From Mytilus edulis (Eukaryota): a DNA stretch of 64,000 nucleotides. Position numbers and translations under genes: made by a program. The notes beneath the pieces were generated by a model, which made no database searches, had not been told where the DNA came from, and saw only the letters and a list, made by a program, of their open reading frames with translations. Each line of letters opens with the position of its first letter. Position 1 is the first letter of the stretch. Positions 9,601 to 58,917 of the stretch are shown in pieces. The stretch is taken from positions 20,435,307 to 20,499,306 of the forward strand of contig NC_092353.1 of NCBI RefSeq assembly GCF_963676685.1. Reading direction: 5' to 3'.

Positions 9601-10189
9601 TTTTAGATAGAAAATCTTGCTCTTGCCGAAGAATAAATAAAATATGTTTCACGTTCAAATACATATTTCAAATCTGGACTTCAGATATGTGTATCAAGAC
9701 AACCTCGTTATTCCGATACACCCATGTTACGACATACTTTTATTCAACAGTCTGATATATGAAGACAAGGGTTAATAGTTGTGTCATAAGAATGTCAACT
9801 TGTAGAGTTTAATCAATGTTCCAGAAAAAAGAACCATTTATTTATTTCAAAATTCAAAACTAGAAAACCGAGCAGCTCATTTGTCGTCCTGAATATGCAT
9901 GACATTTTTGGCTACTTGATTTACCATTGTTTAAACAAGGCAAAGTCAGTGACTTGCTATTGGGAAACCAAACAGGCCTTTGAAACTGCGATGCTATTTG
10001 TCTCAGATATGACGATTCTATGACAGTGTCGTGGGAACTAAAACATGGAACAGAACCTATTTCAAAATATAAATTGCCAAAATGTGTTGATGACGCTTTT
10101 TAAATAATTTACGTCCATGTCTACTCCTTCTAAAATTGTAATAACTGTGTTTGAATACTAACATCAAAGTTTTAAAAGAGATCAAAGTC

Positions 10190-10700
10190 GAAATTTCGAT
10201 TGTAAAAAAAAATCGAAATTTTGAGTTTACAAAAAGTCGAAATTTTGAGTTTAAAATAAGTTGAAATTTCGAGTTTAAAATAAGTCGAAATTTTGAGTTT
10301 TATAAAAGTAGAAATTTTGAGTTTAAAAAAAGTCTTAATTTCGAGTTTAAAGCGAAAATTTCGACTTTTTGTAAGTCGAAATTTCGAGTTTCAAAAAAAG
10401 TCAATATTTCGACTTTTCAAAAAGTCGAAATTTTGAGTTTTATAAAAGTCGAAATTTTGAGTTTTTAAAAAGTCGAAATTTCGAGTTTAAAGCGAAAATT
10501 TCGACTTTTTGTAAGTCGAAATTTCGAGTTTCAAAAAAGTCAATATTTCGACTTTTCAAAAAGTCGAAATTTCAAGATTTTTGAAAGTCAAAATTTCAAA
10601 TTGATGTCAAAATTACGAGATTTGAAAAGTCAAAATTTCAAGTTAAAGTCAAAATTTCGAGATTTGAAAAGTCAAAATTTCGACTTTGAAAAAAAAGTTC
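10190..10700. repeat. Minisatellite of ~31-bp units (aagtcgaaatttcgagtttaaa) with a ~120-bp higher-order duplication
   Basis: The unit contains the palindrome tcgaaatttcga; 10340-10460 is nearly identical to 10460-10580. Confidence 0.85.
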
Positions 10701-11439: not shown

Positions 11440-11830
11440 TTACATTTCGTACCTGTTGTAGATATGAAAAAAATATGGCAGACAAACAGTGGTCCTCAGA
11501 TGATAACTTGGAGGAAATATTGATACGGAATCAACTATCCAACAGGCTGATGTCACTGTAAACCCTGATACGAAATCAACTATCCAACAGGCTAATGTCA
11601 CTGTAAACCCTGACACGAAATCAACTATCCAACAGGCTAATGTCACTGTAAAGCCTGATACGAAATCAACTATCCAACAGGCTAATGTCACTGTAAAGCC
11701 TGATACGAAATCAACTATCCAACAGGCTAATGTCACTGTAACGCCTGGTACGAAATCAACTATCCAACAGGCTAATGTCACTGTAAACCCTGATACGGAA
11801 TCAACTATCCAACAGCTGATGTCACTGTAA
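11440..11830. repeat. 48-bp tandem repeat, ~8 copies (acgaaatcaactatccaacaggctaatgtcactgtaaaccctgat)
   Basis: Direct reading; the - strand ORF 11440-11781 is just the periodic translation VDFVSGFTVTLACWI x6. Confidence 0.9.
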
Positions 11831-14800: not shown

Positions 14801-15339
14801 AGCAACTTGTATTGAGTAAATGTTATGCAGTAAAACTTTATAATCCGTCTAATAGTCACAGGGCTCCACATATTGCAAACTATCATTTTACTAGTAAATA
14901 TCAAATATTAAAACCATCATTAGAATCATTCGAAAGAATAAAACACAATGTCAAAAATAATTGATTTTAATGAGTTGAATATTGTTAACAGTTGCCATGT
15001 GTGCAACTAACAGTGCTATGGTTAAATATGATACTCCTGCATGGGCAAATATAATTAAGACAACGCACAGACAACTCCCTACAATAACACTGAAAACCAA
15101 TTTGAGTAACTAACTTTCTAAAACCTGGATCTTTGAATAAAATGGGAAAATATCATTACATAAAATGTAGTATGCTCAATGAAATTGACCCTTTTCAGTT
15201 ATTGAAATATTTAATTGTTGCACTATGTCTACAAATATGAACCATCGTATTTTATTTTAGGTCGTCTTGCTTACATAAAATACAGGTAAGTATGAACATC
15301 ATATATTGGAAGAAAAGAATTAAAGCTAAAAAACTCTCG

Positions 15340-15700
15340 TAATTTACTGTCGATATGCACGTCTACATAGTATGTCCTTAATATCTAAAAAGGTTTCATG
15401 AAATTCTGTTGTGTGGTTTCAGAGGAGTTGCGATGACAAACTGTTGCAGTAGTATATTTAGGCAAATAAGTTTAAAGGGGCGTAACCTCTAGAAAAAAAA
15501 TTGTATCGTAATTTCCTGTCGATATGCACATCTACATAGTATGTCCTTATTATCGACAAAGTTTCATGAAATTCTGTTGTGTGATTTCAGAGGAGTTGCG
15601 ATGACAAACTGTTGCAGTAGTATATTGGGGCAAATAAGTTCAAAGGGGATTAACTCCTAGAAAAAAATTGAATCATAATTTCCATAGTATGTCCTTATTA
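15340..15700. repeat. ~188-bp tandem duplication, ~2.3 copies
   Basis: 15340-15527 is near-identical to 15528-15700 (tttcatgaaattctgttgtgtg.tttcagaggagttgcgatgacaaactgttgcagtagtatat). Confidence 0.8.
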
Positions 15701-19096: not shown

Positions 19097-19296
19097 CTGT
19101 GTACATTATGTATATACAACTCGTCTAAACATCAACCCAATGTTAGATCTGTAAATTTGCTTTCTCAATTTTTTTTGTCACGATATCTCAGTAGCCTGGG
19201 TTCGAATCCCGGCGAGGGAAGAACAAAAAAATTGAGAAAGCAAATTTACAGATTTAACATTGTTGGGTTGATGTTTAGACGAGTTGTATATACATA
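19097..19296. repeat. Foldback element: ~70-bp near-perfect inverted arms around a ~56-bp loop containing a tRNA T-arm-like sequence (agcctgGGTTCGAATCCcggc)
   Basis: Left arm 19097-19168 is the reverse complement of 19225-19296, including a perfect 27-mer (ctgtaaatttgctttctcaattttttt); the loop holds the GGTTCGAATCC TpsiC consensus. Confidence 0.7.
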
Positions 19297-20179: not shown

Positions 20180-21430
20180 TAGCTTCTACAGACCCCTTAT
20201 CTGGAATCTGGGAAATGTCCTACTATAGTGAGAATTTCTTCTCACAATCGATAGGGATTTTTGTTTGGGGGTAAAAGTTTTGAAGCTATGTGTTAAGGGG
20301 AGGGGGGTCATTATGTGGTGAAAATTTTGAACATACCCTTCAGCCGATAAACGAAGACCGTTCCCTAGGTTTAGCTTCTAGATACCCCTCTACTTAGTGA
20401 GAATTTCTCCTCGCGTAAGGTTCCAGTTCTCATTATTGAATCCGACTGAAAACATATGAAAAAGCATTCCGACCTGGGAGTTCTTGCCTTCACCTGTTAA
20501 ATCTGACAGTCAAGAGACAGGTTATTCCACTGGTCGACTAAAACAAATTTCACTGACGGCAATCGATAGGGATTTTTGTTTGGGGTCAAAGTTTTGAAGC
20601 TATGTGGTAAGGGGAGGGGGTCATTATGTGGTTCATAAATATTTTTTTTTGGGGGGGGGGTCAATAAATTTGAACATATATACCCCTCAGCTGATAAACA
20701 ATGACCGTTCCCTAAGTTTAGCTTCAACAGACCACTCTACTATAGTGCGAATTTCTCCTCGCGTAAGGTTCCAGTTCTTATTATTTAAATCCAACTGAAA
20801 ACATGTGAAAAGTATTCCGACCTGGGAGTTCTTGCCTTCACCTGTTAAATCTGACAGTCAAGAGACAGGTTATTCCACTGGTCCACTAAAACAAATTTCA
20901 CTGACGGCAATCGATAGGGATTTTTGTTTGGGGTCAAAGTTTTGAAGCTATGTGGTAAGGGGAGGGGGTCATTATGTGGTTCATAAATATTTTTTTTTTG
21001 GGGGGGGGGTCAATAAATTTGAACATATATACCCCTCAGCTGATAAACAATGACCGTTCCCTAAGTTTAGCTTCAACAGACCACTCTACTATAGTGCGAA
21101 TTTCTCCTCGCGTAAGGTTCCAGTTCTTATTATTTAAATCCAACTGAAAACATGTGAAAAGTATTCCGACCTGGGAGTTCTTGCCTTCACCTGTTAAATC
21201 TGACAGTCAAGAGACAGGTTATTCCACTGGTCCACTAAAACAAATTTCACTGACGGCAATCGATAGGGATTTTTGTTTGGGGGGTCAAAGTTTTGAAGCT
21301 ATGTGGTAAGGGGAGGGGTGACCGTTCCCTAAGTTCAGCTTCTACAGACCCCTCTACTATAGTGAGAATTTCTCCTCGCGTAAGGTTCCAGTCCTCATTA
21401 TTTAAATCCAACTGAAAACATATGAAAAAG
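20180..21430. repeat. Satellite-like tandem array with a ~350-bp unit, ~3.5 copies; the first copy has an internal deletion
   Basis: Unit starts (gaccgttccctaRgtttagcttc) at ~20352, 20702, 21051 and 21319; copies >95% identical; G-runs inside the unit. Confidence 0.85.
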
Positions 21431-21451
21431 CATTCCTTTTTTTTTCGAGAG

Positions 21452-21492
21452 TCACTGATGAGTCTTTTGTAGACGAAACGCGCGAAAATCCT
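21452..21492 (+). ncRNA. Hammerhead-ribozyme-like core (gagagtcaCTGATGAgtcttttgtagacGAAACgcgcg), abutting the 350-bp satellite; stem III and the cleavage site appear truncated here
   Basis: CUGAUGA, a GUCU/AGAC helix II, then GAAAC, in the canonical order and spacing of minimal type I hammerheads. Confidence 0.4.
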
Positions 21493-22984
21493 GGTATCTA
21501 TGATGAGTTTATTTACTCTTTTCTTATTACGTAAGTTATAACATGTTAAACGTACGATTTTGACTTTTGCCTTTCAGTGTCACTTATAAAACGATATTAT
21601 CAACTACATTAGAAGAATGCCAGCTACATAAAAAAAATAGATCTATTGTTATGTAGTTGATCGTTTTGTAGTGGACGTATACATACTTTGTGGCATTTAT
21701 TAATACCACGGATATTTCGACATCACACACACTGTAAATGCAAAATATTGGTTATAATGATATAGATATGAACGTGTTTGATGTTCCATTGTAATCTTTA
21801 TAGAAAATCCCGTTTCCAAGTGGACCAGTAAAAAAATACATTTTACCGCTACCTACTTAAATGCCAAAAAATATTGATTCCATTACAGAGTTATCTATTT
21901 ATGCACTCATTATTATCATGATATGTAGAGTTATGGTTTAGTATAGGCACTTTCTAGATACAAAATGAGTTTCATGGGTTATATTATAACAAACAAATAT
22001 CAAATACACTTAAAACATTAAGATAAATCTGAAACCAAAACCAGCAACTTAAGGTGTTGTTATATCAATCTACATTATATTTTCTATCTAAACAGAATTT
22101 TTAAAGATTTATGTAATTGTAAAGATGTTTATATTGATACGATATTTGGTATTTTTGGGGTTGGGTCATGCAGTTTGACGTCATGTTAGGGCTTTGAGCA
22201 TAATTTTCAAGAAATCAACGGACCTATTCCTTGTTTGTCTATTGCAAATAGTAGAACTTACGTGGCACTAAGCAGGACACCAAAATTCAAGTAATGACAC
22301 ATCCGTATTTTCCTCACAGGTCAGTTGTACAAGAATGTTGACAGATTTTGTAAAAGAACTTAAACTAAACGAAATATTTAGTAAATAAGCAAATTGCACA
22401 GGTTTGCGATGAAAAAAAAACCCAATGTTATCCTATATATTAGATGCAAATTATTCAGTCATCTCGTTTTTTTGGGGGGCAAAATATCTATCAGGTCAAA
22501 ATATTTTTTATTCAGATCCTAAATCCCTCCTCCTTTAAAAGAAACCCAAAAGAAGCAAATAAAATCAGATTGTCGTTCACAAACCCCGATCGTATGAAAA
22601 ACACTCTGTTATCATCAACCGATCAATCTGTTATCTTGATCGATAATGTCACCGTAATCATGTGTTTATTTATTCAAAGTATATCCTTAAGGGGTTACAA
22701 TGTAGTATTCTATTTAGTAATAGTATTTGAAATATGAATGATTAATAATCATAAGTATCATCAGTTTAAACTTTGAATGACGTCAGTTAGATATTTAAAT
22801 CTTAATATCTCATTTAGATCAATCAATACACGTCCTATGGCTTGTTAAGATTTCACAGATTGTTCATGTGATAGCCTAGAAATGTATAAATGAATTATTA
22901 TTTTTTAATGATATTTGTCAATGTGAATGGCTAACGAAACAAAAAGTCTACGTGCGTTAAGTGAGACATTTAGCAAGCTATAAA

Positions 22985-24300: not shown

Positions 24301-24356
24301 ACGTGTATCTATATTTCTCGCCATTTGCTAAAATAGTTTGTCAGTCTTACAGCAAG

Positions 24357-25645
24357 ATGGACAGACAACGGATGGAAATGAAAAATTATGGATTATTGAT
24401 ACACAATCATATTTTGAAATTGAGAATGTTGTTAAACAGACACAGACATAAACGAATAGATCACAGAGTGCGCACGGTATGGGTAAGGGATTGGATAGGT
24501 AGAAGATCTCAGTTTGGTTTTTATGCACAGCTGTTGGATGAATTGAGATGTGAAGACACCGTTTCTTTCAAAAACTTTTTGAGAGTTGATCCAACCATGT
24601 TTCAGGAAATTGTTAATAGATTAACACCAAGGCTACAAAAGAAAGACACGTGGTACCGAAAGGCATTGCCAGTTGGTCTTAAAGTAGCAATAACCCTTCG
24701 ATATCTAGCCACAGGAGACAGTTATCATTCACTTATGTATTTATTTAGAGTGCCGCACAACACGATATCCAATCGTGTAGTACAAGTTTGTGAAGCAATT
24801 ATTTCCGAGTATGCTGAAGATGTTATCAACACACCTACGGAAGAAGCTGGATGGCTAGCCATTTCGCAAGAATTTAGTGATATGTGGCAGTTTCATCATG
24901 TGCTAGGTGCACTAGATGAGAAACACGTTGCTATCAAATGTCCGGCTGGTGGTGGTTCTAAATACTATAATATAAAGGATTCCATTCTATAGTTCTAATG
25001 GGCTTAGTAGACGCTAATTATAAATTTAAATGGGTTAACTTTGGCGCACCAGGTGCTTGCTCTGATGCACAAATTTGGAATCAGTCAGACTTAAAAAATC
25101 ATATAATTGATGAGAATATGCACATACCAAAAGCAGAGCCTCTTCCGAATGATGACAAAGACATTCCGTACTTCATCGTTGGTGACGACGCGTTCGCCCT
25201 CAGAAGTTGGCTAATGAAGCCCTTTTCTAGGAGGAACATGACCCTTGAAGAGAGAGTTTTTAACTACAGGCTATCGCGATCACGAAGAGTTGTTGAAAAC
25301 GCATTTGGGATACTTGCAAATCGATTTCAATGCTTACTTTCAACTTTAAAGCAAGAGCCTAACAATGTCGTATCCATTATTCTGGCCTGTGTTTGTCTGC
25401 ACAATATAATGAGGATAAGATATCCAGGTGATCAGAACATTTTGTTAGACAGAGAAGACGAGAACCACCATCTTTTACCTGGAGCTTGGCGAGACGAAAC
25501 AAACCTGAAGGACATTGATGATGTGAAAGATCGCAACTATCCTAGCAGGCAGCAAAACAACAAAGACTGTATCTTAAACACTATTATTCGTCACCTGCAG
25601 GAAAAGTTCCATGGCAAGAACGAATGGTTCAATAACGTTTTTTAA
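24357..25645 (+). pseudogene. HARBI1/PIF-like DDE transposase (DDE_Tnp_4), ~430 codons, split by a frameshift near 24966-24980 (ORF1 GTG-start 24303-24992, ORF2 24998-25645; the homologous reading actually resumes in the second frame at ~24971 with YKGFHSIVLMGLVDANYKF)
   Basis: LPVGLKVAITLRYLATGDSYHSLMYLFRVPHNTIS (HTH region) and HVLGALDEKHVAIKCP...YYN(R/I)KGFHSIVLMGLVDANYKF..FGAPGACSDAQIWNQS...IVGDDAFALRSWLMKPF (catalytic D...D...GD region) match the Harbinger transposase architecture. The tataatataaagg stretch at 24966-24980 looks like a 1-bp indel. Confidence 0.8.
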
Positions 25646-31730: not shown

Positions 31731-31899
31731 GGAATAAACACATTAAAAATTTAAATTGTTTGATCGATATTTAAATACCAAACCAGTTAGACATTTTTTA
31801 AACAGAATAGCTTGAATGCCTTATATGTTTCACAATTATACTCTCCGCTTTGAGTCAGAATAAGGCATACAATTAAATTTACAAGTCGATCATACGGTC

Positions 31900-32130
31900 A
31901 TTGCTATATTAATAGTATCAAATTTACAACACAGAAAGCCCTCCTAGTCAGACTAATATGTATTATGCTTGATGGTCATTGCTATATGAAATAGTATCAA
32001 AATTACAACACAGAAAGCCCTTCTAGTTAGACTAATATGTACTATGCTTGATGGTTAATGCTTTATGAAACAGTTTCAAAATTACAACACAGGGAGCCCT
32101 CCGAGTCAGACTAATATGTAGTATGTTCGT
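31900..32130. repeat. ~73-bp tandem repeat x3 (..tcattgctatatgaaatagtatcaaaattacaacacagaaagccct.ctagtcagactaatatgta.tatgct)
   Basis: Direct reading. Confidence 0.8.
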
Positions 32131-33109
32131 TGATAATTCACATTTGATTCTGTATATATCCATTAAGACCTAACTTTATGTAGACGCCCTACTTAATTTC
32201 AAATACGGTTTCAAACCATAGCCAGCGTAGATTTCAATTTGATATTTGTGTAAAATTGACAGATTATTTAATTTCACTTTCAGATATATTGATGATGTTC
32301 TTTCCATAAACAATCCGAACTTTTCTGATTGGGTTCCATAAATATATCCCCCAGAACTAGATATTAAAGAAACAACAGACACGGCTTCCACCGCCTCATT
32401 TTTAGACTTATATCTCGAATTTGACTAACACAGTCATCTCAGTACCAAAATCTTTTACAAACGAGACGATTTTAATTTTGAAATTATAAATTTCCCCCAC
32501 CTTAGTAGCAATATACCAACTTCACCTGCATATGTGATATATATTTCCCAACTTATTTGATATTAAAGAGCTTGCAGCTCCTACTCAGACTTTGTAAAAC
32601 GTCATCAGTGTCTGAGTAGAAAGTAAATGAACCAGGGTTATGCCAAAGAACGTCTCGTCCTTTTTCTTAAAAAGTTCATCGGAAGGTACCAAGACCTTGT
32701 TGATAAATATTCCGTATCAACTTCACAAATAATACACGATGGTCTTGATGTATAGATTCTGCGTACTGGTGTTGTTTATCATCTTAACAACGTGTTTTAT
32801 AGTTATTTCATTTGTCTTTGTTCTATTATTAATATTACTTTTACTGTTGAAAGGTTTTATGTGATATCCGTTTGACGTGGCTCGGTACTTGTACATCTCG
32901 TCAATTTGTTTGTATTGTCCTTCAATTTTTGGTGTCGTGCTTTGTATATGAGACTTTTTGTATTTCTTTGGTTCTTATAACGTGACTCTGTACTTCAAAA
33001 GATCCCGTCAGTATGATATTGTTCTAGTTTATGTCATTATGATATATTTCTATTATGAATTACAAAATACGTTGAACCATAAACGTCAAAATCATTCAAT
33101 CGCGTAGTG

Positions 33110-33700
33110 GAATTTACTATTTGTGGATTCTTATAAATTCTATATGTAACTTTTGGACTATTTTCAATCTCGGTCTATTTCTGAAATTTATTCTTACATA
33201 CTTTTAATTTTTTAACCCTATATGCTAACGTTGCCTTTGTAAATTTTAAAATTGATTGTATGCACATTGAACGACAAATTTATGTGACGTATAAAATTTT
33301 CTGACGTCAGACACTCAAATCAATGAATGTGTTTGTAGATAGATGTGTTTGTTTTCTGTTGAATTGTTCCTTTTAAAATTGTTATACGATGATGACTGAT
33401 AGTGGAATTAACTATTTGTGGATTCTTATAAATTCTATATATAACTTTTGGACTATTTTCAGTCTCGGTCTATTTCTGATATTTATTCTTACATACTTTT
33501 TAACCCTATATGCTAACATTGCCTATGTATATTTAAAAATTATGCATGCACATTGAACGACAAATTTATGTGACGTATTAAAAATTTTCTGACGTCAGAG
33601 ACACAAATCAATAAATGTGTTTGTAGATAGATGTTTTTGTGTTCTGTTAAGTTGTTCCTTTTAAAATTGTTATACGATGATGACTGATGTGCCCATATTT
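33110..33700. repeat. ~296-bp tandem duplication x2; each unit contains the palindrome TGACGTCAG
   Basis: 33110-33405 is near-identical to 33406-33700. Confidence 0.85.
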
Positions 33701-35289: not shown

Positions 35290-35530
35290 ATATATATATA
35301 TAGGAAGATGTTGTATGAGTGCCAATGAGACAACTCTCCATCCAAGTCACAATTTAAAAAGTAAACCATTATAGGTTAAAGTACGGCCTTCAACACGGAG
35401 CCTTGGCTCACACCGAACAACAAGCTATAAAGGGCCCCAAAATTACTAGTGTAAAACCATTCAAACGGGAAAACCAACGGTCTAATCTATATAAACAAAA
35501 CGAGAAACGAGAAACACGTATATAATACAT
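35290..35530 (-). repeat. SINE-like variant subfamily copy
   Basis: See 34428-34570. Confidence 0.6.
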
Positions 35531-36429
35531 TTCATAATTCGATAAGGCAAACAAGAACATCTAGTGCTATTTTAGACCCATGCACAATGCCGAATGATGA
35601 GAACGGAAAATCATCAAACTCTTGACATTACAAAAGTAATTACCTGCCTTTGGAAAGACACACATAATGAAAAAGATATGATTGCCATTGTGTCAACTAG
35701 CCATAGCCTGAAATGACAAATACGAATAATTACAAGTCAATATGCAACTTTTAACAATGAACAAAACCCATTTTAACTTATGTTTGTCAAACTCTCTCCA
35801 TATCTGTTACCGTGGTTTAACAAAACACTCAACAAAAAAACTGTATTAAGATAGCTGTTCTACATAGCACAGTTGAAAACAACTTTATAGTTGAATAAAT
35901 AATTCGAAAAATAAATAAATAAAAAAGAACAAATAGATAATTATTTGAAAAAGGGTTGATTTCATCCGGTCGCTACACAACCTAAACACCAAAGGACAAA
36001 GGACAGAAAGTGCCGACCTTAGAGTACTTAAGAGTATTTAGGAATTTGTTAATATGAGATCATTGAATTTCAGCGTCATTGCTGGATTACAGCATATTTC
36101 TCAATGATTACAGCATATTTTTCAGCGCCTACATCATATTTTTCTATGGTTTTCAAATGTCTATATTGCTCTGGAATTTTTTCCATAGTACGCATATATA
36201 CACTTTAGTTGGGGTATGTTTTACTTTTTATATAGAAATTATTTAATTTATTCTATTCATATTAATATTGCCACTTTTATTTAAAAAAATAGTTGATAAT
36301 ATCTACGTCTGGACAGTTATTTGCAATTATATTATATTTATATGTAAGATGATGAAAAGTAAGCCACGGGACTGTCAAGTTTATTTTCAATTTATGAGTT
36401 TGAACGTCACTGTGGTAAAAACTAAGGAT

Positions 36430-36640
36430 TTTCTTGTCCGAAGAATAGGTTACCTTAGCCGTATTTGGTACAACTTTTTGGAATTTTGGATCCTCTATGC
36501 CCTTTAACTTTGTATTGTTTGGCTTTATAACTATTTTGATATGAGCGTCACTGATGAGTCTTATGTAGACGAAACGCGCGTCTAGCGTCTGGCGTAGTAC
36601 ATTATAATCCTGGTACTTTTGATAACTATCGTCTCTCTTT
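36430..36640 (+). repeat. ~200-bp interspersed repeat unit carrying a complete hammerhead-like motif; a homologous but degenerate copy lies at 44700-44900
   Basis: tagccgtatttggtacaactttttggaattttgga...gagcgtcactgatgag...aatcctggtacttttgataac is shared with 44720-44900. Confidence 0.6.
36537..36592 (+). ncRNA. Candidate minimal type I hammerhead ribozyme: gagcgtcaCUGAUGA-GUCUuauguAGAC-GAAAC-GC..gcgucua..GCGUC
   Basis: All conserved core nucleotides are present in the canonical order: CUGAUGA, a 4-bp helix II, GAAA, an ACGC/GCGU helix III, and a GUC triplet. The helix II loop differs between copies (UUAUGU vs UUUUGU) while pairing is retained. Confidence 0.45.
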
Positions 36641-37009
36641 TGATATTTTTATCATTTCAAAGTAACAAATTTGTTAATATCTTTTTACACATACACTCAC
36701 CCAATATGCCATATTTATAATTATATGATATTCAAATAATACACAGTAGATTTGGGTGTTTAATTGACATTGAACTGGATGGATGATGTTAAAAGTTTAA
36801 ATCAATAATACATTTTTAACCTTTTCACAAACACAAAGCTCGAATTTTACATGGAAAAACCTATGTTTTCATATAATGGACTTGTTTAAGTGAGCTTGAT
36901 ATTCGAAAATATTTTAATTTTTATCACAGAGTCGATCTTGTGATCTCGTAATAGTTAAAACAGTATGAGGTTAAGCTAGCTATGAGACCAGCTTTATCTC
37001 CCCTTCCCC

Positions 37010-37100: not shown

Positions 37101-40100
37101 TGGACTTTCTCCTTTAAAAGTTACCTAAGAGTGTGATTTTTGTTAAAATGTCTTTCAAATTATCCTGCTTCGATTTTAAATAGTGCAACACCACGTAACA
37201 ATGTATGTATATGAATGGCATTGGAATTGTCAAAAGTCTTCCAGTTTCAAAACTTTTCTTGAATAGATTAAGACAACGATCCAATAGAATATTTTTGGAA
37301 AATTAAGTAGTACTAATACAGTATGCGATTTTACACACACACTCTAGATTTACACAGAAAATGCATTCGTCTTAAAACAAAAAAAGTTTTCTTCACCTTT
37401 TGTTTCTGTAAGGAACACCTGGAAATAAGAAAATCGTTTTAACTTTCTAAATATTATTTGCATCTACATTATTCGATGTATATTTTACGGCATTAACAAA
37501 CAATAAAATTGAGAATGGAAATTAAATGGAAATGAGGAATATTTCAAAAAGACAACAACCCGACCAAAGAGCCGAAAACATCTGAAAACCCCAAGGACCA
37601 GCACCACATTTCTAATTGGGAACCTCATAAATACATCACAATTTGTACACCACAGAAACTTTTACACTTAGATATTCAAAGACTAAGCGCTCTATTTGTA
37701 GAGGCGATAATAAGTTTAGCAGTAACACTATGATATGAAAAAGCTCGACCTAAAAACGTTTATGTAGTAGAGGACTGAATACTACAAATCCCACATTAAA
37801 TATAAAATGTGTTTTCACAAGATGTCTTTTATAATACACAATATTACTCAAGTTGTTATTAACATCCATGTATTACGCTACACGCCAATTATGTAATGCT
37901 TAAAAAAATCTAAACATCAGAATAGAATAATGATATTAAAATATGTTGTATCAATAATATAAACACTACACTCATTGAACCAGGTAATTTATACCAAGGT
38001 TGAACATAGGTGATAATTGACACCACTTTCGACATTAATAATTCTGGTAAATGACCACTTTATAGTTGTACTGACCATAGTACATTTGTATAAATAGACC
38101 GTTAAGCTGTGACAACAGTTAGTTTTCTATTTATGATATAATAAGAAAAAATTGAAGTCATATAAATAAAAGAAAAGATTTAATAAGATTTTCTGACTTG
38201 AATTAAGTTTTTGAGTAAAGATGCTAATTCAATACAGGATAAGTGGATACTCGGATTTGACATGTTTGTTTAAGGTATGGGATTTATCCGAACCAAATCT
38301 TGCTGTACATTGCTTTTATTTGTTTTTCGATATTCAATAAACCACAATGGTAACTAAGGTGTAGAAATATGTCAAGATAAATCCTCCGTCCTAAATGCAA
38401 TACCCGTTTTGTTAAAAACAGAAGCGGGTAAATTTGGCTTACAAGGGTATAAATTAAGCTGGTTTGTTTTGGGTAAAATCAAGGTTGCATAGTGTGAGAA
38501 TATCTTGCTAAAAGATAAGCAAAATATATCAAAGGGACATTCAAACTCATAAGTCGAAAATAAACTGACAACGTAATGGATAACAAAAAGACCAACATTC
38601 AAACAACAGTACACATAACACAACATAGAAAACTAAAGACTGAGCAACACGAAATAAACCCAACACTGGTGGTATTCTCAAGTACCCCAGAATTCAACAT
38701 TTTATAGATTTCATGCGTCAAGCCATCGGGAAGACTAAACGCTAAATACTCCTATTTGACAAACAATGATGTAAAAGAACCGACAAAGTTTCACTTTATA
38801 AATATTCGCAGCCATATCAGGTCAAGTGTGTCTGAAGAAGTTGATACCTTAGATTCTTTATCAACTACCCTTAATGATTTTAATAAGGGGCACTTTTAGA
38901 GGTTTAATGATAAATCATGTTAGTACCCAAGTACTAACTACTACCTACTCGGTGATTCCCTCAAGGATTGACAGCTCCACCAGCAGCGGGAAGGACACTG
39001 TGCTGTAAAAAAATATTTGTTTGTTTGTAGTGTCTTGTTGACTTGTTTGTCTTTATTTTCTGGTTTTACCATGGTGTTGCTGTTGCTTGCTTTTCCTACC
39101 CTTTCTAATCTGAATGTTGTGAATTATAATTACGTATACTGATTTTATGAGTGCCTCGTGTGTAAGGGTTAGGGTGCAAATAAGAAGTACGCTATAGAAG
39201 CGAAGCTCCTGCTAGAGGAGGAAGATAAAGACTAGGTAACAGATGTCCAATTAGTTCTGCCACATTTTCTCTAATCAAGTGTGATTAAAGTCAAAGTTTA
39301 TAAAGAAATGTCTCGGCCATTCCCCTTTGAAAGCTTAAATATAAATTTATCTCCTCCGATTCGTTTTTTCTTTATTTCTCAGGGAAAAAAGTAATTAACG
39401 ATTGGCAAAGTGCACAGCTGTAAAGTACCTTCAAGTTGTTTACACAAAGATTAAGCAACCTGGCATCTTAATTGATATATGAGTGTCCATAAAAATTAAC
39501 CACACGGTATTGACCAATTTAGATTGTCAATACTATTCTTATCAAACTTAAAGTGGAATACCATTATTGGATTAGCCTTGTAAACAGAATAGAACAACGT
39601 TGAGATTCTTATTCCTGAGGTCAAATTATCTTGAATGCTAGGAACAACCAAAGAGAAACACTTAGAATATCATAAACATTCAAGATAATGCTGATAACAA
39701 AATAAATACGATAATTTCAAAATTTATTATAAAGCCGGTCTGGTATGACTACCATTGAAATAGTTTCTTCATTTCAATGTTTCAGCTATTTAAACATTTT
39801 CAGCCCTTTTTCGGAAAGTTATTTTAGCCAGTTTTGTTGTTCGTATCTTTGGCGACTATCATTTTTGCATTATATACATCATCTGTAATGTTCAATTTAA
39901 TAAATTAAAAAAGGTCAGGATATTCTACATCATCTGCAAAATAGAAATAAAGAAAACTTTGATTTATAAATAATCTTGTCATCTTAAAAAATATATATTG
40001 ATTATCTAATTGTAAACCAATACAGACACTTGAAATTACTTTTTTAATAACCAAATTTAGCAGAAATGGATTGATTTGTATAAAATTGATGCATTGACCA

Positions 40101-44050: not shown

Positions 44051-44699
44051 ATTTTATATAAGTTTAATTTCAACGCTGATAAGAGGAGGAGAAAGTGACA
44101 ATGCATGAACAAAAATGTAACAAAAACGTAGCAAGCTAAAAGGACAAACACATCAACATAACACTGCAAAAAAAAAAAACAACCTTAAAAAACACGAACT
44201 CCAACAAAAAAATAAAGTGATCGCAGGTACATCTAAAGGGTACGCAACGCTTTCTTTAACAGAATAGAGCACATACACATGTTTATAGATCACATGGAAT
44301 CATAGGAAAACACATTTTCATTGCTTTTAAAGATAGGTATCTACCCAATATCACTTGCAACTGCATTGTTTTCAGCACATTTACAAACTCATAAATACCA
44401 CCATTTGATATTAATTAGTATTGTAATTTCATTGTTATTAATAAATGTTATATCAGTATTACGTAATTCTATTTTATTTTTGGGAAATGTTTTTAGAAAT
44501 TCAAATGTGACGTCACTTTGTGCGTTGATGGCATTGGCTAACTCGGCTGTGTATTTGTATGTACTAGTTTAGGTTGTTTTATGTAAAATATTTTTTATTC
44601 TGTATTTAGTCACAACTTCGGTTTTATTATGTATATCTATTTTATTGTCATTTTTATAACATTTACTTTTGCAAAAGTATGAATTATTCTAAATAATAA

Positions 44700-44900
44700 G
44701 GATGTTCTTATCCCAGGCAGAAACTCCTAGCCGTATTGGGTACAACTTTTTGGAACTTTTAGTCCTCAGGGCTCTTCAACTTTGTACTTGTTTTGACTTT
44801 CGAACTTTTTTCATCTGAGCGTCGCTGGTTAGTCGTATGTGGACAAAACGGGCGTTTGGCATATTAAATTTTAAACCTGGTACTTTTTGTTAGCTAGTAT
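44700..44900 (+). repeat. Degenerate copy of the hammerhead-bearing repeat (core mutated: gagcgtcgCTGGTTAgtcgtatgtggacAAAACgggcg)
   Basis: Alignment with 36430-36640. Confidence 0.5.
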
Positions 44901-45290: not shown

Positions 45291-47129
45291 ATTAAATATG
45301 GCATTATAAAAAGAAAAGTCTAACAACACTAAATTCCAGCATCAGTTTCAACTAGTAGCTTCACTAAACTCTTATAGAGTCTCTATTTGCATATAATATT
45401 CATATAAATACTCAAATAACCGTACCATTAGTATACAGTCAACTTTAATTTTGTTCTTTACTAATTCCAAGACTACAGTCATATAACATCAGAAAAGCCA
45501 CCTTGAAAATTTTTACCGAGATTAATGCGAGTGACGTTTAAAAATTTTTAATTAACGACTTGAAACCATATGCAGCATATGAAAAAGAATAACATAATTC
45601 CAAACGAAACGTTAATAAAAATATAAATTGCGCAATTTTTAAAGGACAAGCAAAACTGCTCTTGGGGACACGTATGTATATTTCAAAAACAAGATTCATT
45701 TATCGTTTATAGGTAAACAGATTTTTTTTTTTTTGTAAATTTTGAAATGTAGTTCACATGATATTGCATCGGCTTCCTCCACTAATAAATCTGGCCGCCA
45801 CGAAATGGCCCAAAAGGCAGTGCTTAAAAGTGGCGTTAAAAACACAAAAATAAAATAAAGTCATATAATATTTTTTTCCTCAGGAAGAAGCATTCGTCTA
45901 AAGCTTTTGCAATTGTTCCAAATAGCACCATCTGCAAGTAGGGATCATTTATCACTTTGGTTGTGTAGATAACACATATATTGCTGTCAATATCATAAAC
46001 AAAACAATTTACCAAATCTATAAAAGGTATATAAAAGGTATCTGCAGAACAAAATATGTTGATGTGTGTCTATAAATAACATATGTGATAATTTTTATCG
46101 CTATCGATATTAAACCATATTCTAATAAATGACAATTTTACTAAGATTGTACTGAACATAGTACATTTGTATGAATAACAGCACACCAATTTCCTGGAAC
46201 GTGCAGACCGTTTTGCTTTTACCACAGTATATTTCTATCAATGAACTATTATAATCTGTATCATATTTCTTTTAAAAATCAATGAAATTACAAATGTAGA
46301 TTTACAAAGTTTTTTTCAGTCATTATTAGAGACAACCAGTTGTGCTTTAACTTGTATGGAAACCAATATGTTCATATTCGAGAAAAGCAATGCCAGCTTA
46401 CCATTATAATAGCATTTTGTTTGAAATATTACAATCAAACTGATACGAAACACAGGTGAATACATTGCAGAACAAAGTCACAAGAATCTTCCATGTTTAT
46501 TTTGTATATTGTTGTAATTAACCCAATATAATTGTATTGTTATCGTTTTGTGTATCGTTTGGCCATGAAACACAATGGTAATAAACTGAGGTATAGGTAT
46601 ATGCCAACGAATTGCAATACTTGTTTTGAAAAGTAAAGACTCGCCATGTTTGTCCGCGTTTGATAGGTATGAATATACTGTTTTTGGTTAACAATACATT
46701 CATGATGCGTAGTTGGTAAATTTTATATAGTTCTTCATCCTTTTTATAAGATTTGGATTTTTAAATATTTTGACATCGATCATCATTGAAGAGACATTAA
46801 TTGTCGAAATGCGCATCTGTTACAGAACAAATTGTACCGTTTTAGTTCTTGCGTGCCGATTACGCTTTTATGCAATCGGAACTTCTGACTCTGCTTTAAA
46901 TGTCGTTGCTCTTAAAAATTACAAAAAAGTAAAATGGTCGCAAATAGTGGACCTTTCATTTGTATGACAGACGACACCTTTGTCCTATGTCAGTTAGATA
47001 ATTATACATATTCATATAACTTATTCCAAGGTGCTACATATATTTTTTAATGCATTTATTTTGGAATGTCTTTTCCAATTCTACCTCATCTTTTACACGA
47101 AAAGCTAAGAAAATCCTACAGACATTGCA

Positions 47130-48249: not shown

Positions 48250-48800
48250 AACAGTATTTTCACAGATGATATCGGATATGTTCCTTATGTCTTAACTACA
48301 ATACTCTTCCCTTTTCACGAATGTTCCCTACCGAATTAGACTATTTACCGTATTTGTAATAACATAAGCAACACGATGGATGCCACAAGTGGAGCAAGAT
48401 CTGCTTACCTTTCCAGAGCAACTGAGATCACCCCCAGTTTTTGGTGATGTTCGCGTTGTTTAGTCTTTAGTGTTCTATGTTGTGTCTTCTGTACTTTTAT
48501 TTGTCTGTTTGTCTTTTTAATTTTAGCCATGGCGATAATTAATTTTCAGTTTATTTTCGATCTATGAGTTTGATAATAACATTAACGGTACCAATTTTCC
48601 TGCACCAGATGCGCATTTCGACAATACATGTCTCTTCGGTGATCCTCGTGGCCAAAATGTTTGAAATCCAAAGCTTATATAAAAGATGAAGAGCTATAAT
48701 CCAAAAGGTCCAAAAAGTATAGCCAAATCCATGAAAGGAATCAGAGCTTTGCAGTAGGGAGATACACTGTCCCTCTGGTATCTTTCGTCCATCTTTTCTA
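48250..48800 (+). repeat. ~500-bp interspersed repeat family D; second copy at 63560-63870
   Basis: Shared blocks: cttcccttttcac.aat...ccaccgaatt; tgccacaagtgg/tgccacatgtgac...gcagaatctgcttacctttccagagca.ctga..cacccccagtttttggtg; ...ttttagccatg.c..ta...gtttattttcgatctatgagtttga...tccctctggtatctttcg. Confidence 0.6.
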
Positions 48801-51800: not shown

Positions 51801-52694
51801 GTAGTTTGTGTTTGCGCGTTCGTTTTTATAGCATCAATTGTGAATTCATGTCATGAAAATTTGTGAAGTGATCCAATAAAAATGAACCTCACAAAAAATG
51901 TTTCATTAGAACGATCAACTATTTAATACTACAACATATATGACAGTGTGTATGCTGAGCTTCATTTTACAACAAGTTAATCATAATATAAGAAAATCTT
52001 ATTAGAAAATCTTCTGATGTTCAGGAGTATTCTAAAATGGTCAGTCCTTTGAAATGAGAGTCTGGACATATCAATGGTTTCATTTTCATTGACATCTTTT
52101 TGAGTAATCCCTATCGGTTTTTACATTTCTTCGTGTTTTCCGGTCTTTAATCCTAATCTTTAGTTACTAAGACAATAACAATCAAAACCAAGGAGTAAAC
52201 AAAGATTAAAAAACCAAAGGACATTTACATCAACAGTTATAAATAATAAATAAGAATAACACGAATTCCACTAAAAACCGGGAGTGAAATCAGGTGCTCC
52301 GGAAGGGTAAGCATTTCCTATACCGTATACGGCACCCGTCGTGTTATTTCTTTGTTCAGTTCGGTAATGACGGAAGTTTATTATGACTGAGGAAGAATAT
52401 CGGATATGATTTCTGACACACTTTTGTCATAATGGCCAATCAGCTCATGATGGCGACCGTAAAATTTCTTGAGTGATGACCTTAATTTGATTGATGACCT
52501 TAATTTGATTGATTCATAGCCCTGTCTTAGCATCTTTTGAGAAAGCACTAACTAAGGTAATAACTTTACTTCTATCATCCACAGTCTTTCGCTTTCTTGA
52601 AGTACTCACTTAAATCAAAAGAATTGACCTAAATAAATCTTATAATACTCAATACTTTTCGCACTTAATTTGACGTTGTGAACTTTTTTTATTA

Positions 52695-52745
52695 GAGCGT
52701 AACTGATGAGTCATTTGCTTACAAAACGTGTATTTTTGTGTAGAA
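52695..52745 (+). repeat. Degenerate hammerhead-like motif copy (gagcgtaaCTGATGAgtcatttgcttacAAAACgtgt)
   Basis: Same T-run + gagcgt.aCTGATGAGTC context as the other three copies. Confidence 0.35.
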
Positions 52746-54939
52746 AATTTGCATCCACCTGTCTATGAACAGTTTATTGAATTGATTTTCATATTTTATT
52801 TCATTGTCATCATATTGCATAGAAAACAAAGATCAACCATCAACCGAACAATCTTTCAGAATTCGAAAAGTGGCCGAACTTAGGCTTATAAATATTCTTT
52901 CATGACAAGGAAACGAGAGTAGTGTTCTTGATAATCTCGATATATTTGAAAGAAACGCTGAACAAAATATAAATAATCATTCAGATCACCTCTTTGCATT
53001 ATAGCTGCCATTGAGCCTCTCGATTTATTGATGCACCGAAAATTGATATTCTACAGAGTAGGAGGGTTGAGATTTAAGATATCTGCTTCCCTAAATGACA
53101 TGCCATAATGATCGTTTATTTTGAGTCATATCAAAATTTACTATCAATTTTCTTTGAAAAGTAAATGCTGCAACACTGCGAATTCACTTAACCTCCGTTA
53201 TCAATCTCCTTCTATCCCGTCTCATTTAAAGAAACATCGCAGTATAATGCCTTTGTAAATATAAGTACTCTTTAACTTGGCTCTTTTGAGCTATTGTTTG
53301 AACTTAAAACAATAAAGCCAAACTCTCACCAAGTATCAAAAACATGGTAAATATATAAACTTGCTATTGAAATGACAGCCAAATTTAATTGATGATATGA
53401 CAATACTCTTAGTTAGGACATGTATATTCCATAATAAAACTTATCCTTTTAAGTTTGAAAATATCGAACTATACCGGTAAAATCATTGATTATCTCTCAA
53501 TTCCTTTTTATAATCGTAGGTACTGTCTACTAGTATTCGATCAATTGCTGACAATTATTATAATTTAATATCGCACCGTACAACTGCAGTAAGCTCAATA
53601 AGAACATCATGCCCGATATACCTTTGAGAAGGAGACACTAGTCTTAACTTTTCTGCATGCCACGTCGTAGGAGTAGACTGAAAAGTGAGAGGGGACAAAA
53701 GTATTATATAATTAACTCGGCGCTCTGTTTCATTTTAATTTATTATTTTGAATAGATGTTACTGTATAAAATGGTTGACAGAAGCATAGTTTTCCCTAAA
53801 ATCCCCTTTGTTTTTCTGTGATGTATTGTGTTGGTTAATTCCTCCACAGGGCTATACCTCTTCTGCTTGAAATCTAAGGTGGACAGTATGACATTTCTAT
53901 GACAATTCTGTGTACAAAGTTTATAACGTCAACTGTCTTTATACTTTGTAATTATATGAAAATAATTATATAGAGTATTTTACTGACTTTACTTGACATT
54001 TGTGGCCAGACACTACTCAGTTTTGACGAACAGATAAACAGGTCAGTCAAAGGTTTGGATTGTTTTGGTTGTGTATAATGTAGAGGCGTAAGATCTCGAG
54101 TTCTAAGCTATAAAACAGATTCTCATAAGTAGATTTCTACTTTGATAAACATTGTTATTATTCGTATTGATTATTTTTTCATTAAGAAATCGGTAGCCAT
54201 AGTAGACAAGACGCTTTGACATGATATCAGTCGGTATTCAAATTGCATCATTACTACACTCCATGATAAAACTAAAATTACAAAAAACTCAAAGGATAAT
54301 TAAAAGATATATTTGTAAAGGTAAATGTTTCATCAGGTTATGAGTACCATATGTTTTTGCTTTAACACCACTCACATAAATGTTTGATTGATTTTCAGAG
54401 ATAAGTTTGGAAGGTTCTGTAGAACGCTTAATCAATTCTGTAAAATATTTTGCGTAACAGAACTAGAAGACTGACTTCTATTAGTACACTTAATTTATAA
54501 AGACGATTTGTATATGGAAAAAAAAGTTGAAGAGAAAAAAATAACGTGTCCTCTATTATAGATACACAAGGTAATATTCTTATATAAAAACGCCTATTCT
54601 GTTATGATTACTCAAAAGGTACTTTATAAAGGTATAAAGTTGATGAGCTATGAGGACCAACTATATATCATTTGATTTTGTTTTATACATTTAAGCTTTG
54701 TTATACTTTCATAACCATAGAAATAACGAAACAATTCCAAAATGTCAACGTAGTCATAGTTTACCTTCTTTAATTAAGAGGTTAATTTTCATCATTTAAT
54801 TTGAAGTGCTCATTTGACTGCTTTATCTATCTGTATTTCAATGTCGTTTGAAGCTATGTATATGAACTTCTTGATAAAAACTATATTTGGGATTAAACCA
54901 TTGACAATAGGAAATGCATTGTAAGTAAGCATGTAATGT

Positions 54940-55160: not shown

Positions 55161-57499
55161 TTTTATATGTATATTTTAAATTGATAATGCATTGATATTG
55201 TTTGATCAGGGTCATACCATACAAACTTCTTGTTCCTGTTCTCCACTGTGTAAAGTCATTAAGATATCTGTTCTGTGATATATCTCTTTTAATGTAGGGA
55301 ATTCATACCAGGAATGTAAACAAAAGCATTCTCATACACTTCAGTATGATCGTTAAATTACACCAAGATGTAGGTTTCATATAGATAATTACTAATTAAT
55401 TGTTACAACTATTTAGTATAGATGAATATACAAATGTAACCTTTCAGATAACAAATGAATCCATAGACCTGTTGTAAAAAACGTATTCGTAAAAGCAGGA
55501 CATTTATCGAATAAAGGATTGGTAAATTATCTTCGACTAAACATTTCCACAATTTACTTATTTTCTTGTAAAACAATTCAGTTCAAATAATTATCCGGCC
55601 ATCTAATGTTTTGGTTCTATATATCATTGGTGTTTGATTCTGTTGTTTCGTTGTTTTCCTCATATAGTTGATGTCTTTCCCTCAGTTTTAGTTTGTAACC
55701 CGGATTTGTTTTCTCTCAATCGATTCTTGACTTTTGAACAGCGGTATAATGCTGTTGTCTTTATATACCATGTAGTATTTGACAGTAAATCGACTAAACA
55801 TCAGAACAGTTCTTGAATCCCTTCAACACCTTGGTTGAATGTCCTATTACATAAGCTTATTATGATATTATCCTCTTTAAAATCTGTAAGTCTTCGTTAG
55901 TCTTAAATTGTTCGGCTTCACTTATTCCTATCGCGCAACGTTACGTAAAATATCATGTATTTGATGTTGGCAACTGTTCATACACCACACAAAGCGATAA
56001 ATACTCGATTAAAATGTAGTTACATAAAATCGTACTTGAAATAAAATTTCCTCATTTATGGAATTGATCGTGTTTTGGTATAAAATAAATAAACAAGAAT
56101 AATAAAAAAAAAGGCATAAAATTATTACTGTGAATGTTACAGTTTACCTTTTGAAAGACCTTGATCTGCTATGACTTATAACCGAATACTTGCTTATACT
56201 ATTCAATCATAGAGTGAAAAAACAAAGGACAATACTAACTAGAGCATGATAGCATGGATATGCTGGCATCTAGAAAGATGCTTCCCAAGACTTGTTAATG
56301 TTAACATGTCATGTTATAACCATTTGATAAATGTTCACATATCATTTCTTGTATCAGGATAAAAACATAATTCCGCATGTGACAGGTTCTCGTCAATCAA
56401 ATCAGGCTAACCTTCAAAGTAAAATTTAAACTTTTCCATTAGTTCTAATAGTGTTTGTCTTGATTGATTATGATAAGGTCTCTATCTTCAAATGAATGCT
56501 ATGATTAATCAAGTAAATGAGTTCATTAAGAAATTTTAATAGTATCTTTCTTTCGTGAATATATCTTAAGAAATACACCGACCGTTAAGGTATCAAGATT
56601 GAGAATTTATTAATAATTATGAAGACGATTGTAAAGTAAAGTAAAATTTCAATCCTGGTATCTATGATGAGTTTTTTTTATTATTCAATACATTCGTATT
56701 TTCACGCAATTTTAAGCATTTTTGTAAAGATTGAAATACTTCTGAAAATGTAATAAAATAAATTCAGAACGGATTTGCCATACGTTTTTATTGTTGGAAC
56801 TTTCCTTGTCAAGATGTTATTTTTTTTTAATAAAGTTGCGTCATCAAAGACAATGTAAAACATGGTAAAATTTAATACTTATTTTCTTAGTAAGCATTAA
56901 ATAAAAAATTTCAAAAGAGTTAATGTGTTGTTAAAGTTGTCTGATGCATTTAACTATGTTTGATTAAAAATCGGCAGATGACGTCAATCCATTCATTTAA
57001 AATAAATAGCGGTAGTATAATGGACATTCATGAAGAAGTAGTTATCAGAATTGTTTCCTTATTTTTTTTAAAACAGAAAACAATGTAAAAATACAATGGT
57101 TTGATTATTGACAGACTTATGACGCAATTGTTACATGATGTTAATCTTTAGTGTGGTAGTGTTACAGTCCTTTAACAGCATGTCGATATTGTGACTGAAA
57201 TGTTTTAAAATTGGTTACGAATATATTGTAGCAAATCACAACTTTTCTTTATATGATAATATAAATTGAAAAAAGGCGAGGAGTCAAAATATGATGGAAT
57301 TAGAAGAATTAGAATTAAGATTAAAACTAATAGATAGATCTAATATATATTATACCTTTCACAGATTTGAGAAAATCTAAGTAACAATTAATAATTGTGT
57401 GCGTCCAAATAGATTGACATTTATGAAGAACACGCTAATTAAACTATTTTAACCCAAAGAACCGTCAGCTGACAATAAAACCATTTTTTGTCTATCAGT

Positions 57500-57829: not shown

Positions 57830-58070
57830 GTATGAGTGCTTATGAGACAACTCTGTATCAAAGTCATAATTTGTAAAAGTAAACAATTATAGGTCAAAGA
57901 ACGGTCTTGAACACGGCGCATTGGACCACACCGAACAGCTAGCTATAAAGGGCCCCAAAAAATGACTAGTGTAAATCCACCCAAACAGAACACGAACTCT
58001 CTAATCTCTATAAAAAACGAGAAATGAGAAACACTAATGAATAGTTATCAAAAGTACCAGGATTATAATT
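57830..58070 (-). repeat. SINE-like variant subfamily copy; its end (aaagtaccaggattataatt) also matches the tail of the hammerhead repeat unit
   Basis: Aligns with 35290-35530; 58040-58062 is the rc of aattataatcctggtacttt at 36592-36625. Confidence 0.55.
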
Positions 58071-58314
58071 TAGTTTAAACATATTTTATTTACTCAAAGT
58101 AAAATGGATTGGACACAAGTAAGCCATACTTATGAAGTCCGCTCCGAATGACAATAATTTACAATACAATATTAATATGAGCATGCAATATCAAGATAAA
58201 CAATATTTTACGAGTCTATCAATTGAGAAAAAAAATGAAACAGAAATAAATGTAAACATTGAAAACGATGATGATGATGATAATGATGACGTGGATGTAC
58301 CGTTAATACATTTT

Positions 58315-58593: not shown

Positions 58594-58917
58594 GAAAGAT
58601 GAGTAGCATCTGAATTATGTTAAAATCATATTTAGTTCCTCGGTCCATATAGACAATATAGACAATATTTTATTCGCACAAACACATTTACATTAAATGG
58701 TTATGGCATACAAAGTAAGACAATAAACTGACAATAGTTAAATTGATTATAATTATATTAGAGTGACAGTGGTATTCACAGCGAAGAAGAAAAAGGCTAT
58801 AAATATCAACAGTTAACACATTGTAAATGTTCATGAACAATCAAAAAAAGAACACAAACAAAAATTCGGTTGCATATTAAAAAAAAAAAATTATACAGAT
58901 GCATATTAAAAAAAAAG

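Follow-up and report, generated by a model that had tools for sequence, protein, structure and literature searches.

The closest described relative of the element discussed here is the non-LTR (LTR, long terminal repeat) retrozyme of the mussel Mytilus galloprovincialis, reported by Cervera & de la Pena (2020, NAR 48:5054, PMC7229834; the passages on the mussel element are the ones drawn on throughout). According to those passages, the genome carries ~5000 hammerhead ribozymes, which fall into two close sequence families differing in loops 1 and 2 and usually sit in repeats of 350-390 bp that are described as species-specific. Circular RNAs (circRNAs) of these repeats are abundant in mussel tissues, and a cloned genomic unit, Mg353, self-cleaves in vitro during transcription, as hammerhead-sense T7 transcripts, with a kobs of ~0.1 per min. 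Here we analyse a stretch of 64,000 nucleotides from the related mussel Mytilus edulis (RefSeq assembly GCF_963676685.1, contig NC_092353.1, positions 20,435,307 to 20,499,306 of the forward strand), called the window below, to which all coordinates and strands refer. An inspection of its letters alone, the original prediction, had proposed a hammerhead-like core within a short interspersed repeat, together with degenerate copies elsewhere in the window. We find that these repeats very probably represent the mussel non-LTR retrozyme, a retroelement that is not autonomous, in the form of partial copies that lie singly at dispersed sites.

In the life cycle described for the family, head-to-tail units of ~350-390 bp give rise to a multimeric RNA, in which the type I hammerhead cuts after the GUC triplet, and the resulting monomers are circularised by a host RtcB-type ligase (PMC7229834). 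An autonomous element, with Penelope-like elements (PLEs) as the favoured candidate, is proposed to supply a reverse transcriptase that uses the circRNAs as templates, and rolling-circle synthesis of cDNA from the circRNA is proposed as well. The same source groups the mussel ribozyme with the canonical retrozyme hammerheads and not with the minimal PLE variants. A second point of comparison is the recent account of vertebrate non-LTR retrozymes (Li, Clavereau & Pollet 2026, bioRxiv 10.64898/2026.07.22.740005), whose passages on genomic organisation describe dispersed monomers, like the solo copies treated here. In vertebrates these monomers are spread evenly along the chromosomes while multimers are clustered, and the monomers are read as offspring that do not transpose. 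That account also reports an origin of retrozymes from the pseudo-LTRs (pLTRs) of PLEs, and the taxa that it covers are vertebrates plus three insects and a single coral, molluscs being absent.

The pattern CTGATGAGTC-N(3-10)-GACGAAAC has exactly two matches on the + strand of the window, at 36551-36575 and 21455-21479, and none in 100 dinucleotide-preserving shuffles of it. Allowing up to three mismatches adds the sites 44825-44849 (CTGGTTA...GACAAAAC) and 52703-52727 (...TTACAAAAC), against a shuffle mean of 0.01 matches. When the window was searched in E-value mode with the covariance models of Rfam, Hammerhead_1 (RF00163) gave a full-length match at 36545-36588, which is the sole hammerhead match of the window in that mode, with E = 6.8e-5 when a 601-nt stretch is searched and 0.0072 when the search space is the entire window with all 4227 families; the HH9 and HH10 models gave no match in the window. 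The covariance-model search proposed with the original prediction does not refute it: the match is full-length and its E-value low, with 28.5 bits that lie under the gathering score of 34 bits. The letters of 36537-36592 agree with the way the original prediction had read them, and the full type I core that it claimed near these positions is borne out by a complete core with three helices at 36545-36595 (+). At the level of sequence and predicted structure the motif is confirmed as a real type I hammerhead ribozyme and not a chance feature. The copy that contains it, and the parts of its ribozyme, are as follows.

36417-36629, + strand: solo, partial retrozyme copy of ~213 bp, from blastn and alignment to the published consensus
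36545-36595, + strand: complete type I hammerhead in register B, from the minimum free energy (MFE) fold and the RF00163 match
G36545-A36550 with U36590-U36595, + strand: helix I, GCGUCA/UGGCGU, 6 bp including two G-U pairs
36551-36557, + strand: core, CUGAUGA
36558-36561 with 36567-36570, + strand: helix II, GUCU/AGAC, 4 bp, loop UAUGU
36571-36574, + strand: GAAA
36574-36577 with 36585-36588, + strand: helix III, ACGC/GCGU, 4 bp, loop GCGUCUA
36583-36589, + strand: 7-nt duplication TAGCGTC, whose placement within GCGTCT-AGCGTCT is ambiguous
C36589, + strand: predicted cleavage nucleotide in register B, with the cut after it

Numbered from the cleavage site, the copy at 36417-36629 corresponds to consensus ~229-393 followed by 1-44, and it is without the central domain of the unit. 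A helix I, which the original prediction had failed to find, is present with 6 bp and ends 3 nt beyond the stretch to which that prediction had confined the motif, while the ACGC/GCGU helix III that it had drawn is the same pairing as in register B. Two registers arise because A36574 has two possible partners: U36588, with C36589 cleaved (register B), or U36581, with C36582 cleaved (register A). Register A is the ancestral one; it is cut after C36582, its helix III consists of an A-U and a C-G pair closed by GCGC, and its helix I, GCGUCA/UAGCGU, is weakened by a C-A mismatch that is also flagged in the Rfam alignment, leaving a fold of -0.9 kcal/mol. Register B evaluates at -12.9 kcal/mol. The family's canonical hammerhead fold comes to -6.7 kcal/mol, less than an alternative MFE fold that reaches -10.3 kcal/mol. 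For the segment 36541-36600, the MFE structure, at -13.4 kcal/mol, is the three-way hammerhead junction with helix I and with helices II and III of 4 bp each.

The difference between the registers comes from the duplication, which reads GCGCGTC-TAGCGTC-TGGCGT where the consensus has GCGCGTC-TGGCGT, and which doubles the GUC cleavage triplet. It is private to this copy, being missing from Mg353, from the circRNA consensus and from all eight of the complete copies found in metagenome contigs (described below). In our model it would give helix III 4 bp instead of 2 and move the best-supported cut to the position after C36589; the duplication should thereby stabilise the active fold, and the copy may be a naturally occurring variant whose helix III is stabilised. 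It alone in the window keeps all catalytic residues, namely C3-U-G-A-N-G-A9, G12-A-A14, the A15.1-U16.1 pair and a cleavage nucleotide H17, together with three helices of which helix I is open-ended, and it is predicted to be catalytically competent, so that a + strand transcript, if made, would be cut once by the hammerhead at 36545-36595. The helix III region also contains ACGCGCGU, a perfect 8-nt palindrome, and a double-hammerhead mode like that of newt and axolotl is possible because RNAcofold pairs ACGCGCGU between two molecules as an intermolecular duplex.

The assignment to the retrozyme family rests on homology well beyond the ribozyme. As references we took the two sequences given in the supplement of PMC7229834, namely the cloned genomic unit Mg353 and the consensus of circRNAs cloned from gonads. 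In blastn, the stretch 36417-36623 aligns with Mg353 over 211 nt (E 2e-39) and with the circRNA consensus over 212 nt (E 1e-37), at 78% identity in both cases; 44627-44887, 52658-52778 and 21436-21516 match the published unit at 70-77% identity. From CUGAUGA to GUC, the ribozyme at 36551 agrees with Mg353 at 31 of 32 positions, the sole difference lying in loop 2. The window and the M. galloprovincialis element further share helix I (GCGUCA/UGGCGU), the palindromic ACGCGCGU, the internal run of T and, 3' of the cut, the CCTGGTA... segment, and the loop-2 variants found here, UUUGU and UAUGU, fit the two published hammerhead families. The run of T that precedes the hammerhead is not a tail but is conserved and lies inside the repeat unit, where the published consensus reads AACTTTTTTTTGGATTGAGCGTCA, and the 'aatcctggta' that follows is the conserved segment just 3' of the cleavage site. 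What the original prediction took for a repeat unit of ~200 bp is a remnant of a full unit of ~352-393 bp, of which the window copies keep at most ~213-260 bp. Its proposed link to metazoan retrozymes, on the other hand, is supported by the homology beyond the ribozyme (78% over 211-212 nt) and by a ~352-bp array in one metagenome contig. The family itself has already been described and assayed, and a tie between such repeats and retrozyme biology is nothing new.

The remaining traces of the family in the window are listed here.

21446-21516, + strand: 5'-truncated copy starting at the run of T; core and helix II intact, loop UUUGU as in Mg353
44627-44887, + strand: longest copy, decayed, ~70-75% identity, predicted inactive
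52658-52778, + strand: 5'-truncated, decayed copy; CUGAUGA kept, predicted inactive
46752-46818, + strand: fifth, very decayed hammerhead region (tentative), 73% identity over 67 nt, E 1e-4, with 36380-36700 as query
56642-56678, + strand: tail-only fragment, consensus 12-47, 92% over 37 nt, ending at the shared 3' terminus
58041-58072, - strand: tail-only fragment AAATTATAATCCTGGTACTTTTGATAACTAT, 97% over 32 nt to 36598-36629, ending at the shared 3' terminus
38906-39013, - strand: central-domain-like fragment (tentative), consensus 41-149, 69% identical, E 1e-9

In the copy with its core at 21455, a deletion (GAAACGCGCG|AAAATCC) took U16.1, the cleavage nucleotide C17 and the 3' half of helix I; the final 28 nt of 21446-21516 agree with the consensus at every position. 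Its hammerhead is incomplete and predicted to be inactive in cis; the original prediction, which had recorded this copy at 21452-21492, was right about the shared core and the retained helix II but had not seen that the cleavage site and half of helix I were gone. Two further copies, which it had listed at 44811 and 52697 as decayed, show the core changes that it had given: the core at 44825 reads CUGGUUA ... AAAA (A6G, G8U, G12A), and at 52703 G12 has become A and helix II is broken (GUCA.../...UUAC). Homology of 44627-44887 is firm from 44690 and weaker in the AT-rich part from 44627. The weak match at 46752-46818 reads ...CATTGAAGAGACATTAATTGTCGAAATGCGCATCTG; the fragment at 38906-39013 is contiguous with no hammerhead copy; and the tail at 58041-58072 belongs to the subfamily of the 36417 copy and also matches three of the metagenome contigs (L014, L045 and L051). 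All copies in the window other than the one with the hammerhead at 36545-36595 would be inactive relics, judging from these changes.

Every copy in the window stands alone; nowhere in it is the retrozyme element arranged in tandem, a point that the original prediction had suggested checking, and no terminal repeats were found flanking the copies. The window is rich in AT (31.6% G+C) and in repeats, and the combination of low G+C with no LTR, primer-binding site or polypurine tract is a feature of retrozymes that is found here. The differences from the M. galloprovincialis element are that the copies here are solo and partial, are without the central domain and are 70-80% identical to its consensus, and that the best of them has the 7-nt duplication at the cleavage site, which no other copy examined shares. 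These copies are derivatives or solo relics of the family and not functional retrozyme units, the tandem arrangement of ~350-390 bp being absent. Since each of them has at most one hammerhead, no circle could be released, and circular RNA is expected from none of them.

Independent copies were sought by scanning metagenome contigs with the exact pattern, which yielded 86 loci, seven of them of the mussel type (L001, L013, L014, L031, L045, L048 and L051); these seven presumably represent host DNA in marine samples. L045 and L051 are 84-86% identical to the 36417 copy over 125-231 nt and are without its 7-nt duplication. In L014, whose identity to the 36417 copy also falls within 84-86%, the subfamily of the window forms a head-to-tail array that repeats every ~352 bp, central domain included. 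L031 holds two solo copies in opposite orientation, at 576-669 (+) and 1404-1612 (-), ~740 bp apart, both of which end at the shared 3' terminus. The other 79 of the 86 loci are unrelated hammerheads, apparently of phage or bacterial origin, and were set aside. In examples such as L018, L053 and L073 they follow the scheme ...AAGGTTAA-CUGAUGAGUCU...GACGAAAC-(hairpin)-GUCUUAACC and lie on contigs of higher G+C, and in some of these contigs a pair of copies is separated by 219-512 nt. Presumably these are hammerheads already known from phages or bacteria.

A comparison of the solo copies, six in the window and six in L001, L013, L031 (two), L045 and L051, reveals a common end. All 12 stop on the 3' side at consensus ~44-52 (...GATGAGTTTATTTAC or ...GATAACTAT), ~45 nt past the cleavage site, and the flank beyond this stop differs in every one of them. 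On the 5' side the starts vary, at consensus 157, 229, 233, 280, 316, 340 or 354, or with only the last 35 nt retained. The 3' stop is a true end of the element and not a subfamily boundary, because the unit in L014 continues past it into the central domain. The solo copy in L013 is accompanied by a 9-bp target-site duplication, TTATATCAA, that was equalled in 6 of 500 shuffles. A fixed 3' end combined with variable 5' truncation is the signature expected from target-primed reverse transcription of hammerhead-sense RNA. Under this model, synthesis of cDNA would start at one site on the retrozyme RNA; a cDNA that stops before one full turn would yield a solo partial copy, while one that continues round the circular template would yield an array. 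If the shared 3' terminus were found genome-wide and at the ends of arrays too, it might mark the site on the RNA at which the partner reverse transcriptase primes, a speculative step that we would sooner expect to fail than to hold. No description of a shared 3' end of solo copies was found in the passages of PMC7229834 or of bioRxiv 10.64898/2026.07.22.740005 used here. The terminus is a cheap, testable lead on the reverse transcription of retrozymes and on the partner element; were the idea true, the ~45-nt tail could be compared with the 3' ends of mussel PLEs in order to name the partner.

Several results weigh against the reading of the window repeats as retrozyme copies with a hammerhead. 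At gathering thresholds, Rfam gave no match anywhere in the window. The hammerhead is a minor species when longer sequence is folded, with a mean pair probability of 0.03 in 36500-36640 and 0.14 in 36417-36629. Covariation amounts to just two double changes, both in decayed copies, among 14 sequences that are too alike to inform. Finally, none of the candidate target-site duplications of the window copies was better than those of shuffles. The first of these points loses its force as evidence against the hammerhead call, because the validated retrozyme family as a whole falls short of 34 bits: the related copies in metagenome contigs score 31.2-33.3 bits with RF00163, all below the gathering score, and L045 and L051, which equal Mg353 over the modelled 44 nt except for one loop-2 base, still reach only 33.0 bits (L014, 33.3). 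The family scores low because its helix III is very short, and the copy at 36551 loses a further ~4.5 bits because the Rfam model aligns to the weaker register A. The hammerhead fold is a minor one in the longer context because GAUAUGAG can pair with loop 2. Across the same 14 sequences, 89% of the pair cells hold standard pairs in the hammerhead register, compared with 22-46% when the partners are slid.

Among the other explanations, the one nearest to the retrozyme reading is that an autonomous PLE, with the same hammerhead module in its pLTR, left these copies as insertions that are heavily truncated at the 5' end. Insertions of PLEs typically show strong 5' truncation, a fixed 3' end and hammerheads in the pLTRs, retrozymes of Xenopus have been reported to be close relatives of PLE pLTRs (bioRxiv 10.64898/2026.07.22.740005), and the window copies do end at a fixed 3' position and are without the central domain of the retrozyme. 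What makes this explanation improbable is that 44627-44887 extends upstream into the retrozyme unit (consensus 157-224) and not into a coding or untranslated region, and that in L014 this subfamily forms a tandem retrozyme of 352-bp units. Moreover, the open reading frames (ORFs) of at least 120 aa in the window include one with a reverse transcriptase domain, RVT_1, and no reverse transcriptase or GIY-YIG ORF adjoins any hammerhead copy. The relatives of that lone reverse transcriptase ORF carry Exo_endo_phos_2, which is LINE-like (LINE, long interspersed nuclear element), and its copy ends ~580 bp before the nearest tail fragment. We had considered the tail fragment 58041-58072 as the 3' end of this reverse transcriptase element, which lies on the same strand and would then have pointed to a partner; this was rejected on finding that homology to a 97%-identical contig, L087, stops near 58649, ~580 bp earlier.

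A still less probable explanation, which we regard as very doubtful, is that the copy at 36551 is an exapted host ribozyme that processes one host transcript, in the manner of the intronic HH9 and HH10 ribozymes of amniotes. It is true that this copy has the sole intact core in the window and that the duplication gives it a more stable helix III. It lies in a repeat-rich stretch, however, where ORFs of 120 aa or more are absent from ~30 to 58 kb; another short repeat ends immediately before it, its 7-nt duplication is private, and it has no match to the HH9 or HH10 models of Rfam. The least credible of all, with next to nothing left in its favour, is that the motif is fortuitous or antisense, the run of T 5' of every copy being the complement of a poly-A tail of an element transcribed from the minus strand, an outcome of which the original prediction had itself warned. 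Chance matches are not expected, as the shuffles show. The run of T is internal, flanked by unit sequence on both sides in the L014 array and in the circRNA consensus, and the fixed end is on the 3' side in the hammerhead sense with the variable end 5', as if hammerhead-sense RNA were the template. Against the poly-A interpretation stand this position within the unit and the use of the hammerhead-sense strand for transcription and assay in PMC7229834, where the T7 transcripts of Mg353 cleave. The window repeats are best regarded as solo retrozyme copies.

The minimal hammerheads of PLEs and those of the satellite-2 of newt and axolotl are likewise of type I, with a very short helix III and a palindromic loop. 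The mussel ribozyme differs from the minimal PLE hammerheads in having a 2-bp helix III and in that one motif suffices for cleavage when a monomer construct is assayed. The pLTR hammerheads of PLEs differ from the present ones in that no PLE ORF is adjacent to the window copies among the ORFs of at least 120 aa. The Sm-alpha repeats of Schistosoma are SINE-like (SINE, short interspersed nuclear element). They too are short, abundant, non-autonomous invertebrate repeats with a type I hammerhead, but no sequence homology to them was seen beyond the conserved core. A 285-nt retrozyme of Schistosoma mansoni is listed in the same class as that of the mussel (PMC7229834, passages on the class).

For the window itself, the consequence is that otherwise unclassified repeats can now be labelled as relics of a self-cleaving, circRNA-forming retroelement, which has little import beyond annotation. 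Of more general use is the observation that the gathering score of Hammerhead_1 misses a validated mussel family by ~1 bit, a shortfall through which genome scans at the gathering threshold under-call mussel retrozymes. Solo copies with an intact ribozyme, such as 36545-36595, are also predicted to be able to cut host transcripts that read through them.

Several copies lie beside other repeats. The 36417 copy begins directly at the end of a motif, GTCAGTTTATTTTCGAnnTATGAGTTTGA..., that forms the end of an unclassified repeat and occurs at 36373-36416 (+), 38530-38570 (-), 48548-48573 (+) and 63805-63843 (+). A repeat of the form ...GTGTTTCTCATTTCTCG...GGGGCCCTTTATAGCT... is present at 57901-58034 (-) and 35383-35517 (+), in opposite orientation and 82% identical, and one of its copies starts 6 nt after the tail fragment at 58041. 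A 349-bp tandem repeat at 20333-21318, rich in runs of G and without a hammerhead, has 2.8 units of 96% identity; its last unit is cut exactly where the 21446 copy begins, and the satellite does not resume after that copy. It was considered as a possible retrozyme array and rejected as unrelated, since it is without a hammerhead and merely abuts the 21446 copy. Further tandem arrays lie at 10184-10684 (24/140 bp), 11521-11852 (45 bp), 15337-15683 (168 bp), 31896-32125 (79 bp) and 33105-33688 (288 bp), the last of which has a weak, AT-rich match to retrozyme consensus 151-198 that we regard as low-complexity similarity.

The LINE-like element mentioned above occupies 58649-60771 (-) and is 5'-truncated, with a 617-aa RVT_1 ORF at 58918-60771 whose relatives carry Exo_endo_phos_2 (PF14529). 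Its protein is 97% identical to that of contig L087 of the ENA sample ERZ887851, with homology ending ~270 nt past the stop codon, and its best named relative, from Mytilus trossulus, is 43% identical; the same sample also yielded two mussel-type hammerhead loci. At 24303-25645 (+) lies a PIF/Harbinger-type transposase (DDE_Tnp_4) in two adjacent ORFs of 229 and 215 aa, probably dead, with relatives at 85-86% in contigs and at 50-60% among named bivalve matches (Pinctada, 55%). A 133-aa ORF with a PAN/Apple domain at 1311-1712 (-) is possibly a host exon, and its best named relative is from Mytilus coruscus (56%); among the named matches of the window ORFs there is also a Mytilus galloprovincialis protein relative at 53%. 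Lastly, 19123-19280 (-) gives sub-threshold Rfam matches to models of plant microRNA precursors, MIR7807 among them with 45 bits (gathering score 90) and E 4.7e-6, and is most likely a long hairpin or an inverted repeat resembling a miniature inverted-repeat transposable element (MITE) rather than a microRNA.

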